Assembly: GCA_963775425.1 (NCBI GenBank)
Contig: CAVZJB010000011.1
Span: forward strand, 512,001-576,000
Source of the DNA: an uncultured delta proteobacterium
Lineage (GTDB): Bacteria; Myxococcota; UBA727; VGSZ01
Direction of reading: 5' to 3'
DNA length: 64,000 nucleotides
Numbering within the stretch: position 1 is the stretch's first letter; every line of letters starts with the position of its first letter. Both the position numbers and the translations under genes were made by a program. This document shows, piece after piece, positions 31,536 through 34,500 of the stretch. Below the pieces are notes generated by a model, which was given only the letters and a program-made list of their open reading frames with translations, searched no databases and was not told the DNA's origin.

Positions 31536-34500
31536 ATGTTCGAGATCGTCCTCGAGCGCGGCGGCGTGGAGATCCATCGCTTCAGGGTGAGCGGCGCCAT
31601 GACCATCGGCCGCGCCGCCGGCGCGCAGATCCGCCTCGACGATCCCAACGTCGACCGCGCCCACGCGCGCCTGCTCCTGCAGGACGGCGCGCTCCTCGTC
31701 CTCGACCTCGACAGCACCCACGGCACCTACCTCGACGGCCGGGTGCTGCGCGGCTCCGCGCGCCTCGAGCCGGGGGCGCGCCTGCAGATCGGCGGCTACA
31801 CGCTGCGCCACGCCGACGCCGCGCGGAACCCCGCGCTCGAGGAGAGCACCGGCCCGGACGACGGCGCGCCGCCCGCCGGCCACGAGCTGCCGCGCCTCGA
31901 GGTGCTCGACCGCGACGCCCTCGAGCGCGCGCTCCCGCACGTGCGCGTCGGTCGCCACTTCGTGTTCGTCGACGACGCACACGCGGTGATGCCGCCGGCG
32001 GGCCGGATGCAGCGGCTCCTCGGCTACAAGCACAACAAGGGGCGGGCGGTGCGGGCGCTCGCCGACGCCCCCGTCGACATCGCGGGCGCGCGCATCCACC
32101 CCGCGCCCCTCGAGCTGCAGCGCCTCGCCGGGCTCTCCTGTGACCGCGACCTCTACCGCGCGGAGCAGGACGTGGTGCGGCTCCTCGTCACCATGCCCGG
32201 CGGCGGCAACGCCGTCGTACGCGTCTCCATGAACGGCGCGCCGCTCACCGAGCGCCGCGTGGAGCTCGCGAAGGGCGTGTGCGTCGAGTCCCTGGCGATG
32301 CTCCTCCCCGGGCGCTACGAGGCGCAGCTCGTCGTCGCCGGCGTCGACACCGGCGAGCGCGCGCGCTTCACCGTGGCGGAGTACACCCTGGCGCCGCTGT
32401 CGGCGCGCCTGCTCGAGCACCGCATCGATCGCGCGGCGCAGACGCTCACCGTCACCCTCGGCGTGGAGAGCTACGGCGTGCATTGGGATCGCCCGCTGCG
32501 CGGTGCGCTGGTCGAGAGCGGCCGCGAGATGTCCGAGGTGGTCTTCACCATGGAGCGGCCCGGGCGCTTCACCGGCAAGGCGCGCGTCGCGGGCGAAGGG
32601 CCGTTCACGGTGCGCGCCGCCGCCGTCGACGACGCCGCGCGTACGGCGGACGTCGCGCTGCCCGGCACGCGCCGCCGTGAGCGCCAGCTCACGCTCGCCG
32701 GGGAGCTCGGCAGGGAGCTGTTCGTGTCGCTGTTGCCCGAGCCGGGCGCTGTGGCGGTGCGCGGCCTGCACGTCAGCCAGGGCGACTTCGTGGCCACGCC
32801 CGTCGTGCTCGAAGATCCGGTCGGTGATCGCGCGTGTCTGCGCGCCAACGAAGACATCGAGTCGCTGGTGGTGGCGGCGTGGGATCCCGCGCGCGACGCG
32901 TTCAGCGTCGTCGACCTCGGCGACGTCCCGCGTGGGAGCAGCGCGTCGCTCGACGTGCCGCGGCCGATGTGTGTGGCGTTCCTCGGGTGCTTCGTGAACG
33001 GTGAGCCCTTCGAGGCGTTCACGGCGCTGTTCGCCGCCGAACGCCCCGTCTCGCTCGAGGTGCCGGACACGTGTCCGCCCGGTGGCGAGATCGCCGTCAC
33101 CGTGCGCACCGGGCGGAGCGCGCCGCTGCCGATGGTCCTGTGTGTGCGCGACGAGCGCCTCACGGCGAGCGACGCGCCCCAGCAGGTGTTGGCGGCGTCG
33201 GCCAGGCGCGCGCTGTCGGCGGCCACCGCCGGGCTCGGCGACGACTTCCGCTTCGTGCGCCTCGAGGAGCTGGCGGCGCCGGCGGCCGCGCCCCCCGTGC
33301 GCACGGGAGGCACCCGCGGAGGCATCGAGGTGTCGGTGCGCGGGCGGGGACAGCCGGCGCGCATCGAGCACTTCCACGACAGCGAGGTCAGCATCGGCCG
33401 CCTGCCGGGGACCCAGGTGATGCTCGCGCGCCCCAACGTCAGCAAGCTCCACGCGCGCGTTGTCCTGCGCGACGGCAAGCTCGTCATCGTCGATCTCAAG
33501 AGCACCAACGGCACGTACGTGAACGGCAAGCGGATCGGCGCGCCGCAGGTGTTGAAGGACTCGGACCGGGTGACGGTCGGCGACTTCTCGCTGACCTTCG
33601 CCGTCGGCGCCGCCGCCGCGCCCGACGACGACTTCGACGACGACGTCGCGGTGCTCGCGGCGCCCGCCCCGAGGGCCGCGCGCGCGCCCGGCGTGCGCGA
33701 CGAGATCCTCGAAGACGACCTCTTCGCCGTGTCGGCCGGTGACGACGGCCTCGTGCTCGACGACGAGGAGGAGGCGTCCACGCGCGAGCTGCGCCTGGGC
33801 GACCTGGGATCGCTCCGGGAAAAGGGCGGGGGCGGCGTCGAGGACACGCCGGTGCGCGCCGCCTTTCCCGAGGTGCTCTTCTGCGGGCTCGTGGAGGTGG
33901 GCGACGGCGACGTCGTGCGCGTCCCCGCCGGCGAGGCCCTCGGGGGGTTCGCGGTCGAGATCTTCTTCGTCGACGGCGGCGACTTCGGCGCTGCGCGCGC
34001 GCGCGTGCAGGTGGATCAGGCCGTGCGCGTGGACCTCGACATCGCGCCGGAGATCGACCCAGAAGATCGCGTGCAGGGCACGCTGCGCGTCGGGTGCCGC
34101 TCGGGCAGCGCGCGCGTCGCCCTCGTGTGCGACGGCCGCTCCGTGCCGCTGAAGACGGTCGACGGCCGCATCGTCGGCGTCGACGACGCGCTGCCGTCGG
34201 GCACGGAGCTGTTGTTCGACGCCGGTCCGGGCGTCTGGCTCGCCACCGCCGCGGCCGCCGTCGGCGGCGACGAGGACGCCATGGAGGTGCGCGTGGGCGC
34301 GCCCGGCGTCTCCCGGAGCGTCGCGCGCGAGATTGTCCTTGTGGACCGCGGCAAGCGCGTGACGCTCGACGGCGAGATGTTGTCCCTGCGCGTGCTGCCC
34401 GGCCTCGACGAGCCGTTCCGGATGCTCGCCGAGGCCACGGCCGGCTACGCGCACCTGTGCTGCGAGCAGACGGCCGCCAAGATCCTCTCGGCGGTGGTGA

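Follow-up and report, generated by a model that had tools for sequence, protein, structure and literature searches.

Gene and domain organization

The window, a stretch of 64,000 nucleotides, contains at positions 31536-35618 an open reading frame which, like all features described below, lies on the forward strand. It starts with an ATG at 31536, preceded by a GGGAGG Shine-Dalgarno sequence, ends with a stop codon at 35616-35618, and has a GC3 of 0.96. The gene encodes a protein of 1360 residues with an A2M/TEP/C3 thioester-protein fold and no signal peptide. Directly upstream (30943-31533) is a gene for a MerR-family regulator of 196 residues (Pfam MerR_1, E 3e-12), whose stop codon lies 2 nt before the start of the A2M-like gene, the Shine-Dalgarno sequence of the latter being located within the 3' end of the MerR gene.

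The protein opens with a degenerate FHA domain (residues 20-95, 31593-31820), recognized as one of two FHA stretches by Pfam, by an HMM match over residues 20-95 (E 1e-25), and by alignment. It is followed by an array of β-sandwich, MG-like domains (residues 121-533, 31896-33134), whose modelled strands mostly have a pLDDT above 90 and to which the N-termini of the family align; indeed, most homologues begin at the equivalent of residue 121 or thereabouts. The motif VLCVRDERL (residues 534-542, 33135-33161), which we call the left bait anchor, forms the last strand in the first half of the MG6-equivalent domain. The bait region then opens with a family-conserved helix (residues 543-566, 33162-33233; consensus LTAxDTPxxxLAAxxKRxxxxA), modelled with high pLDDT at residues 548-563 (model residues 388-403), and continues with an Ala/Pro/Gly-rich linker (residues 567-608, 33234-33359; pLDDT about 30-47 in its low-confidence part), a second, canonical FHA domain of the CpaF/TadA-ATPase type (residues 609-690, 33360-33605), and an acidic linker (residues 691-772, 33606-33851). 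The latter is predicted to be disordered (pLDDT about 30) and comprises, among its 82 residues, 23 Asp and Glu, 7 Lys and Arg, and 29 Ala, Pro, and Gly, as well as Ser and Thr. The right bait anchor, VRAAFPE (residues 773-779, 33852-33872), starts the second half of the MG6-equivalent domain. An intact FHA domain and an acidic disordered linker between these two motifs, at 33130-33880, had been pointed out in an earlier note made from the DNA sequence, and both were found there.

The C-terminal part includes a helical thioester domain (TED; residues 958-1194, 34407-35117; model helices at 798-1034), to which the TED of both ECAM and human A2M aligns through the family profile, and which contains a C-C-E-Q motif at residues 975-978 (34458-34469). 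The protein ends with an MG-like domain (residues 1202-1360, 35139-35615; model strands at 1042-1199), and the alignments with TEP1, ECAM, and CD109 reach the C-terminus.

Fold and superfamily membership

An AF2 model of residues 161-1360 was obtained with a pLDDT of 86.1 and a pTM of 0.77, and shows MG domains arranged in a ring, with a helical TED and a further MG domain at the C-terminus. Foldseek searches with this model returned CD109, C5, Salmonella A2M, ECAM, and TEP1r at E-values of 5e-29 to 3e-28 (probability 1.0), A2M also being among the matches, and structural alignments with VIA gave Z-scores of 15-20 to the set of CD109, C5, Salmonella A2M, ECAM, and TEP1. The best overall structural matches are insect TEP1, human CD109, and A2ML1, which are of similar size (836 aligned residues and Z 18.3 for CD109, 8s3o; 766-792 aligned residues and Z about 18 for TEP1r). 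These proteins, which share only 11-14% identity with the one described here, differ from it in being secreted or held by a GPI anchor, and their baits are short and unstructured.

The family profile matches ECAM and A2M at E-values of about 3e-6, and in some homologues the segment directly behind the insert matches PF00207 at a score close to the cut-off. In the ESM Atlas, A2M-family clusters were found at 0.81-0.82, under the 0.9 level of that resource, which makes them a lead only. No A2M-type Pfam or NCBIfam model (A2M, A2M_BRD, MG2, TED_complement) matches the protein itself at E≤0.1. The term macroglobulin, which the earlier note had used, is thus supported by the fold model, the profile alignments, and the homologues, but not by a Pfam A2M match of the query.

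The CCEQ motif aligns with the CLEQ of ECAM (within GCLEQT). A CxEQ motif occurs in 202 of the 216 family members, and in 197 it reads CCEQ, which suggests that a thioester may form at this site. CxEQ is absent from P0003 and P0005, the closest of the relatives that also have two FHA domains in this arrangement.

We detected no export signal in the protein, the highest value for a 19-residue Kyte-Doolittle window being 1.38, nor any transmembrane segment or hydrophobic N-terminus by the same hydropathy heuristic, and none that is credible among the 216 members; the three N-termini which passed the hydropathy cut all correspond to the conserved first strand. There is neither a signal peptide nor a lipobox of the ECAM/YfhM type, and the protein opens directly with an FHA domain. 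Since the domains fused to family members are also of a cytoplasmic type, the protein is probably cytoplasmic, and we regard it as belonging to the A2M/TEP/complement thioester-protein superfamily, from the other members of which it has diverged very far.

The periplasmic bacterial A2Ms, ECAM/YfhM and SaA2M, share with it the ring of MG β-sandwiches, the helical TED, and the C-terminal MG domain, and ECAM also shares the CxEQ motif. Nevertheless, they differ in several respects. They have 1650-1960 residues, whereas the core described here has about 1100 residues and fewer MG domains, without the ten or more MG domains with bMG3, bMG5, and bMG10 signatures of the ECAM/YfhM type. The Pfam bMG, A2M_BRD, and TED models all match a canonical A2M encoded in the same genome and none matches our protein, which, judging from hydropathy, also lacks their lipoprotein or signal peptide. 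A gene for penicillin-binding protein 1C, pbpC, is a frequent neighbour of ECAM/YfhM-type A2Ms, and no PBP1C-type neighbour was present among the genes scanned here. The last difference is the folded FHA domain in the bait.

An FHA domain at the bait position

The position of the insert was deduced from alignments on both sides of it. At the right anchor, the family profile (araefPEvLF) aligned with an 11-residue segment of human A2M, and hhalign placed V773 at residue 1222 of the canonical A2M from the same genome, between the Pfam domains A2M_BRD (1006-1168) and A2M (1229-1318). In addition, the VIA alignments with the α-chains of C3, C4, and C5 begin at residues 775-779 (615-619 in the numbering of the model), just past the insert. 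The left anchor aligned weakly with a segment of ECAM ending in VNVLVSAVDS (domain i-E 9). The AF2 confidence is low over the N-terminal half of the bait FHA, whose place in space is not fixed by the model, and the argument for two MG6 halves rests on the alignments. At this level of alignment and modelling, we confirm that the FHA domain occupies the bait/anaphylatoxin position and splits the MG6-equivalent domain, as the earlier note had proposed. A variable bait or ANA segment within this domain, followed by a strand with FPE, is also what characterizes the superfamily.

In ECAM, the bait-region domain lies inside an MG domain and the bait is largely disordered (PMC4498604). In complement C3, C4, and C5, a folded domain, ANA, is located at this topological position, between the MG6 halves and immediately ahead of the strand with FPE(S/T)W. 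ANA is small and helical, and is freed extracellularly by a specific convertase, whereas the family described here carries a β-sandwich FHA or an α/β T2SSE_N domain, which is probably intracellular and for which no protease is known. In the literature outside subscription journals, we found no description of a cytoplasmic A2M-like protein or of an FHA or MshEN domain in a bait.

Bait content across the family

The bait is hypervariable among the 216 family members, with inserts of 8-348 residues. FHA domains are found in 12 baits and PF05157 (MshEN/T2SSE_N) domains in 30, while the other 174 contain no recognized domain and are disordered, many of them being acidic or rich in Pro. Pfam recovered all 42 domain calls, one of them marginally. 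On a FastTree phylogeny of the core (213 rows, insert excluded), 16 state changes are needed to explain this distribution, with 4 clades uniform for FHA and 12 for MshEN, which indicates that the insert is swappable. Alignment of homologues was one of the checks suggested in the earlier note, according to which a unique and degenerate insert would have spoken against its reading; the insert recurs and the FHA domain is canonical.

Two features of the family limit what can be attributed to a domain in the bait. Most baits have no recognized domain, so the family works without one, and some members carry these domain types at their N-terminus (FHA in 11, MshEN in 1), which weakens the idea that their place inside the bait is essential. 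In P0168, the MshEN of the bait is accompanied by a match to positions 1-114 of the T2SSE profile. Of the 31 MshEN-bearing members, only 4 have the usual c-di-GMP motif upstream of their T2SSE_N module, and we therefore name this module by its family, T2SSE_N/MshEN, and claim no ligand for it.

The two FHA domains

Pfam finds the two FHA stretches with a whole-protein E-value of 2.2e-33, the best being residues 618-682, which cover all 67 positions (1-67) of the PF00498 profile; a family-built HMM extends the envelope to residues 609-690 (E 9e-31). At these E-values, a match by chance is not an issue. The bait FHA retains the motifs G-R, S-K-L-H, and S-T-N-G-T, which include the residues known to contact phosphothreonine in FHA domains, so that its phosphothreonine-type residues are intact. 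The N-terminal FHA, which also matches the profile, reads V-D-R-A-H and S-T-H-G-T, with Ser, whose absence the earlier note had already noticed, replaced by Asp, and Asn replaced by His. The two domains are only 39% identical to each other, and the N-terminal one groups with those of P0003 and P0005 (SH-aLRT 99), at a large distance from the bait FHA; we therefore reject an origin of the bait FHA by internal duplication.

A canonical FHA domain next to a linker containing Ser and Thr could act in cis, a Ser/Thr kinase phosphorylating a linker Thr, which the bait FHA would then bind; the bait would be opened or closed in this way, gating the thioester protein without any foreign ligand. Indeed, the genome is rich in kinases, with at least 154 Pkinase matches, and one FHA-in-bait member of the family, P0145, is fused to a Ser/Thr kinase domain. 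Nevertheless, the FHA of this kinase-fused member is degenerate, none of the 150 Pkinase matches listed falls in the window, and such a switch offers no equivalent logic for the members with an MshEN bait, which makes it very unlikely. More generally, the Ser and Asn-Gly positions are lost in 4 of the 12 bait FHAs (P0058, P0059, P0064, and P0145), with which phosphothreonine binding as a general trigger is hard to reconcile.

Pilus-ATPase ancestry of the bait modules

The best paralogue of the bait FHA in this genome is the FHA domain of the 655-residue FHA+T2SSE ATPase P0268 (59% identity over 82 residues, E 1e-30), for which BLASTP gave 52% identity over 99 residues. PF00437, the ATPase domain, is present in 90 of the 119 non-self matches listed for the bait FHA, many of them named CpaF or TadA at their source, and the identity to the N-terminal FHAs of CpaF/TadA pilus ATPases is 52-65%. 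The ATPases were labelled by the Pfam assignments of the database matches and not by a Walker-A regular expression; the canonical Walker-A motif, searched for in this way, is missing from most of these FHA-ATPases.

The likeness is even higher in some relatives. In P0117, the bait FHA is 89% identical over 90 residues to the FHA of P0249, named CpaF. For the MshEN bait of P0062, 115 of the 120 matches listed are proteins with both PF05157 and PF00437 (57-79% identity), and the host genome encodes two PilB proteins (TIGR02538, 813 and 701 bits for a cut-off of 676), with whose N-terminal domains the bait shares 74% and 72% identity. By comparison, the cores of the family are only about 45% identical, whereas some bait modules reach 72-89% identity to ATPase genes.

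The nearest kin of the bait FHA are therefore the N-terminal FHAs of the CpaF/TadA (KilF-type) pilus ATPases, a likeness which the earlier note had suggested. An FHA tree (159 rows, 85 columns, with a reference set picked by likeness to the bait FHA) was poorly resolved and too weak to prove nesting, so that only nearest-row distances were used from it. On this sequence evidence, the bait FHA derives by capture from the N-terminal FHA of such an ATPase, and in sister lineages the loop is occupied instead by a domain copied from the N-terminus of PilB (MshEN/T2SSE_N), or by disordered sequence alone. The pilus-ATPase kinship of the bait FHA, as it emerges from these comparisons, is new here, and so is the closeness of the P0062 bait to the PilB N-domains of its own genome. 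The FHA-fused CpaF/TadA ATPases share with our protein the FHA alone, since it has no ATPase domain. KilF, the ATPase of the Tad-like Kil system of Myxococcus xanthus, likewise carries an N-terminal FHA fusion (PMC8460266), and is compared here at the level of this domain layout.

This ancestry bears on the possible role of the insert. The bait could simply be a long loop at the surface that is permissive for insertions, the FHA only localizing or regulating the protein, for instance as a tether to a phosphorylated partner or to the pilus machine. Activation, if any, would then be of the classic A2M style, any protease that cuts the disordered linkers being trapped, and the protein would be a cytoplasmic pan-protease trap. 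The domains found at the N-terminus as well, the predicted disorder of the linkers that flank the FHA, and the 174 domain-free baits, which look as generic protease baits would, are all consistent with this reading. It leaves unexplained, however, why both of the unrelated folds that entered repeatedly are N-domains of pilus-assembly ATPases, and why some of them are 72-89% identical to ATPase genes in a family whose cores are so much more divergent. We consider it unlikely.

The explanation which we tentatively prefer, and to which we give somewhat less than an even chance, is that of a cytoplasmic A2M-like protein with a captured pilus-ATPase FHA as bait and a covalent capture triggered by engagement. 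The intact FHA domain, suspended between two disordered linkers in the loop that splits the MG6-equivalent domain, would mimic the docking domain of the endogenous pilus ATPase and would engage whatever normally binds or attacks that docking domain, in the case of FHA a phosphothreonine-bearing protein. Engagement, cutting of the exposed flanking linkers, or both might induce an A2M-type rearrangement that uncovers the Cys975-Gln978 thioester, which could then form a covalent link with the partner that is bound. The earlier note had suggested phosphothreonine recognition as the trigger, or an integrated decoy; with bait modules that stem from pilus ATPases, a decoy or docking role becomes more concrete, while the trigger, the ligand, and the covalent capture are proposals.

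In plants, the integrated decoys of NLR immune receptors provide a sensor with a swappable copy of a domain from another host protein. An inserted domain copied from another protein of the same host is also what we find, with 52-59% identity in this genome and 72-74% in a homologue. The scaffolds are unrelated, and the likeness is one of analogy.

Gene context and distribution

The neighbours of the A2M-like gene in the window are the MerR gene, an ORF of 194 residues downstream, and a CBS protein. All-against-all clustering of the ORFs from 77 related loci revealed MerR as the only conserved neighbour, a homologue being located directly upstream and on the same strand in 14 of them; the 194-residue ORF and the other neighbours in the window have no counterpart in these loci. 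No conserved kinase, phosphatase, protease, or pilus gene was found among the 77 loci. Generic Ser/Thr kinases occur within 6 kb at 10 loci and histidine kinases at 6, which we take as background given the kinase-rich genomes.

Some of these features would fit an immune function, in which the bait is an integrated decoy of a pilus-ATPase N-domain that senses proteins of phages or competitors aimed at PilB or KilF-type ATPases, and the thioester neutralizes them covalently. Phage proteins are known to target PilB. The modules descend from pilus ATPases, some as near-copies, the bait is hypervariable, the gene stands alone apart from MerR, and the distribution is patchy, the gene being present in 2 of 40 relatives and in 1 of 10 within the same family. 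A search of PADLOC-DB 2.0, however, matched no family for the protein and gave only a weak HTH match for the MerR neighbour, and no defence-island neighbours were identified among the nearby genes. We also know of no case in which binding alone activates an A2M-type protein, which counts against such a decoy, and we judge it distinctly improbable. A broader formulation, which we consider rather improbable, is a hitherto undescribed intracellular complement/A2M arm that guards the pilus and secretion motors, with an evolving, swappable near-copy of the cell's own pilus-ATPase docking domain as bait (here the FHA of the KilF/CpaF type, in other members the MshEN of PilB) and covalent capture of the attacker, be it a protein of a phage or rival or a protease. 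If it were true, bacteria would possess an immune sensor of the integrated-decoy kind, built from the scaffold that animal C3, TEP, and A2M also use.

A2M, TEP, and complement are textbook immune molecules of the extracellular space or the periplasm, with their specificity in a short bait. The family described here would extend the thioester-trap principle into the interior of the bacterial cell, provide a natural example of modular, exchangeable baits, and connect the trap with the pilus machineries, both Tad/Kil and type IV, as well as with Ser/Thr phospho-signalling. Directly testable hypotheses follow from it, and it might offer a scaffold for programmable covalent capture in cells. This presumably cytoplasmic branch, whose bait repeatedly took up copies of pilus-ATPase docking domains, is widespread: 268 clusters at 50% identity score at E≤1e-30, and the hosts include Myxococcota, giant sulfur bacteria, Acidobacteriota, Gemmatimonadota, Melainabacteria, cyanobacteria, and other groups.

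Sequence features of the A2M-like protein

The A2M-like gene occupies the stop-to-stop frame 29961-35618 (+), in which the credible start is the ATG at 31536, behind GGGAGG, giving a product of 1360 aa with a GC3 of 0.96. Translation places the left anchor VLCVRDERL at residues 534-542 (33135-33161, +), the right anchor VRAAFPE at residues 773-779 (33852-33872, +), and the thioester motif CCEQ at residues 975-978. The motifs listed in the earlier note were all recovered: IGR...NVSKLHAR...DLKSTNGTYVNG lies between the two anchors and VDRAH lies in the N-terminal domain. The bait FHA (residues 609-690) retains G-R, S-K-L-H, and S-T-N-G-T. 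In the N-terminal FHA (residues 20-95), the alignment shows Asp at the Ser position, in agreement with the loss of the conserved Ser noted before, and His at the Asn position.

Pfam recognizes FHA alone in this protein, in two stretches (E 2.2e-33), the best of which, 618-682, spans the entire 67-position profile. No A2M-type Pfam model matches at E ≤ 0.1, and NCBIfam returns only FHA-containing families, every one under its cut-off. The assignment as a macroglobulin therefore needed a separate test.

Macroglobulin fold and thioester motif

A word-indexed search returned 115 relatives (865-1438 aa), a few of which carry PF00207 or the source name "alpha-2-macroglobulin family protein", and exhaustive phmmer returned 268 cluster representatives at E ≤ 1e-30; the 29,135 phmmer matches at E ≤ 1e-3 probably include proteins matching via FHA alone. 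The AlphaFold2 model of residues 161-1360, computed with 109 aligned relatives, has a mean pLDDT of 86.1 and a pTM of 0.77, with only two poorly modelled segments, 584-637 and 691-768. Foldseek against the PDB matches this model to native CD109, C5, Salmonella A2M, ECAM, TEP1r, human A2M, and A2ML1 (E 5e-29 to 1e-27, prob 1.0), and VIA-align to these proteins gives Z values of 15-20; in the case of native CD109, the alignment covers 836 residues. The family profile also matches the ECAM and human A2M chains from sequence alone (E about 3e-6), its "YahlCCEqTAAK" aligning with "YPYGCLEQTASG" of ECAM. Because of the model, the structural matches, and the profile alignments, we conclude that the predicted A2M superfamily fold and the thioester motif are present in this family.

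Of the 216 members with a length of 900 aa or more, 197 have CCEQ and 202 have CxEQ, which is missing in the other 14. Members P0003 and P0005, the closest relatives, which have a double-FHA layout like the query, are without CxEQ, read ...GAEVHA at this site, and sit on a long branch.

The FHA domain at the bait position

Four independent lines of sequence and model evidence place the FHA at the bait position, in support of the earlier assignment between the anchors. The family profile "araefPEvLFyglvev" aligns to a human A2M segment, the strand following the bait. By hhalign (prob 86%, E 5.6e-6), V773 corresponds to residue 1222 of a canonical 1964-aa A2M from the same genome, between Pfam A2M_BRD (1006-1168) and A2M (1229-1318). 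In homologues, weak PF00207 matches start 10-20 residues past the insert. Finally, when the model is aligned structurally with the alpha-chains of C3, C4, and C5, each taken separately, the alignments begin at model residues 615-619, equivalent to residues 775-779 of the query (C3 744, C4 778-780, C5 766-769), the point at which MG6 continues past the anaphylatoxin domain.

To ECAM, the left anchor aligns only weakly. The insert is preceded by three strands of the model and followed by four, a pattern expected of a split MG domain. The bait-region domain of ECAM is also inside an MG domain, being "found within MG8" (PMC4498604). In the model, the FHA hangs on two low-confidence linkers, which do not fix its predicted spatial placement.

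Bait content across the family

Alignment of the homologues, as the earlier note had proposed, indicated that the insert is neither unique nor degenerate and that its contents vary among the 216 members. The inter-anchor segment ranges from 8 to 348 aa (median 149) and holds an FHA in 12 members and PF05157 (MshEN/T2SSE_N) in 30. In the other 174 no domain is recognised there, the long domain-free baits being Pro/Gly-rich or acidic low-complexity sequence. Pfam re-found all 42 bait domain calls, that of member P0020 marginally. By eye, the inserts of members P0041 (245 aa) and P0044 (265 aa) resemble a TPR/FimV-like helical repeat and a receiver-like alpha/beta domain and may hold other small domains; Pfam gave no match in either insert.

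The N-terminal position carries an FHA in 11 members and MshEN in one, and other additions there comprise a zinc ribbon/TPR and, in P0145 (1623 aa), a Ser/Thr protein kinase domain (63-293), this member also having a bait FHA (811-875) without the Ser and Asn-Gly positions. A core tree (FastTree only, midpoint-rooted, 213 rows after three truncated ones were dropped, insert and N-terminal columns removed) requires 16 bait-state changes, gains and losses pooled, the FHA members falling into 4 uniform clades and the MshEN members into 12. Around the query, FHA, MshEN, and domain-free lineages are interleaved.

Provenance of the bait modules

The main new result is that the bait modules come from pilus-assembly ATPases. 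Within its genome, the bait FHA is most similar to an FHA at the N-terminus of a 655-aa protein (FHA 45-109, T2SSE ATPase 299-593), with 59% identity over 82 aa (E 1e-30; BLASTP 52% over 99 aa, E 1e-34); the bait FHA is only 39% identical to the query's own N-terminal FHA. Searching a collection of 5.8 billion proteins gave 172 proteins at E ≤ 1e-10 among 527 candidates. PF00437 is present in 90 of the 119 non-self rows among the 120 matches listed, these proteins being typically 600-700 aa long, 55-65% identical, and in many cases named CpaF or TadA at source, so the likeness to FHA domains of Tad/CpaF ATPases, suggested in the earlier note, held up. The remaining 29 are fragments, ABC transporters, trypsin-like proteins, FHA-only proteins, and one family member. 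For six bait FHAs (P0002, P0003, P0005, P0117, P0119, P0173) the nearest rows in an unresolved tree are ATPase FHAs, that of P0117 being 89% identical over 90 aa to the FHA of a CpaF-named protein; the other six are divergent. In the Tad-like Kil killing machine of M. xanthus, the ATPase KilF is "fused to an N-terminal FHA domain" (PMC8460266).

The gene for P0268, the genome's FHA-T2SSE (CpaF/TadA-like) ATPase, lies on the same contig beyond the window (L086:1780-3747), some 53 kb upstream of the A2M-like gene. P0268 has "GSGTGT" in place of the normal Walker A GSGKT. Most FHA-ATPases retrieved also miss the canonical Walker A, and such proteins may form a non-canonical or inactive ATPase subfamily.

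The bait domain of the MshEN-bearing member P0062 matched 1945 proteins at E ≤ 1e-6. Of the 120 listed, 115 are PF05157+PF00437 proteins of about 570 aa with 57-79% identity, many named PilB, and five are short fragments. The genome of P0062 has two genes past the PilB equivalog cut-off, whose N-domains are 74% and 72% identical to the bait. The bait of P0168 comprises MshEN and positions 1-114 of the T2SSE profile, and P0073 and P0191 have the same T2SSE piece at their C-termini. Because the FHA and MshEN searches both return pilus-assembly ATPases, the two unrelated folds that repeatedly entered the bait loop are, by homology, both N-terminal modules of these ATPases. In the non-subscription literature, our searches turned up no account of a cytoplasmic family resembling A2M, nor of FHA or MshEN in a bait.

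Possible mode of action

The protein is built on an A2M/TEP scaffold in which the thioester motif is conserved; it lacks an export signal, and its bait loop bears an intact pilus-ATPase-type FHA flanked by disordered linkers. By analogy with A2M, TEP, and C3, any disturbance of this loop would release a stored conformational change and expose the thioester for covalent attachment. We tentatively suggest, at somewhat less than even confidence, that the bait module engages a ligand, or an attacker, of the pilus ATPase docking domain, a phosphothreonine protein in the case of FHA, and that the trap would close on this partner upon engagement, cleavage of a linker, or both.

Against such a trap, the same domain types are N-terminal in other members and the majority of members have a domain-free bait. 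The loop might instead be permissive, the FHA merely localising a generic protease trap, which we regard as rather unlikely. Also against a partner-engaging trap, P0003 and P0005 are without CxEQ, the bait FHA is degenerate in four members, and there are no kinase, protease, or pilus neighbours. The bait FHA as an immune integrated decoy proper seems improbable to us, and as a phospho-switch acting in cis more improbable still.

Genomic context and distribution

The genome (8.26 Mb, 18 contigs) has a single copy of the gene, besides four canonical (exported-type) A2M genes. A homologue occurs in 2 of the 40 relatives searched (46-48% identity), one with a bait FHA and one without; related loci occur in Myxococcota, Thiotrichaceae (Thiomargarita, Parabeggiatoa, Achromatium), Acidobacteriota, Longimicrobiales, Obscuribacterales, Microcoleus, and others. 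A heuristic scan of the query detected neither a signal-like segment at the N-terminus nor a TM segment, and across the 216 members it gave no credible case; no PADLOC model matches the protein. Pkinase has at least 154 matches in the genome, and none of the 150 listed is inside the window.

The sole conserved neighbour is the upstream MerR-family gene (30943-31533, +), whose stop is 2 nt before the start of the A2M-like gene; it recurs at 14 of the 77 related loci, which all belong to the "VRDERL/FPE" branch of the family. Pfam matches nothing in the C-terminal part of its product, roughly 90 aa. For a 194-aa ORF (35631-36215, +) that starts 12 nt past the stop of the A2M-like gene, neither Pfam nor PADLOC gave a match, and none of the 77 loci has a counterpart. 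Three genes further upstream (22345-26385, +; 26938-27927 and 27722-29848, both -) encode a large Kelch-repeat/bacterial-Ig protein (1346 aa), a collagen-repeat/Big_5 protein of 708 aa, and a Big_5-like protein. Judging by their appearance these are surface-located or secreted, and the related loci contain no counterparts. Downstream, at 36767-39258 (+), a gene that fuses LigB(Memo-like) to AMMECR1 precedes a radical SAM gene, an arrangement resembling the AmmeMemoRadiSam trio.
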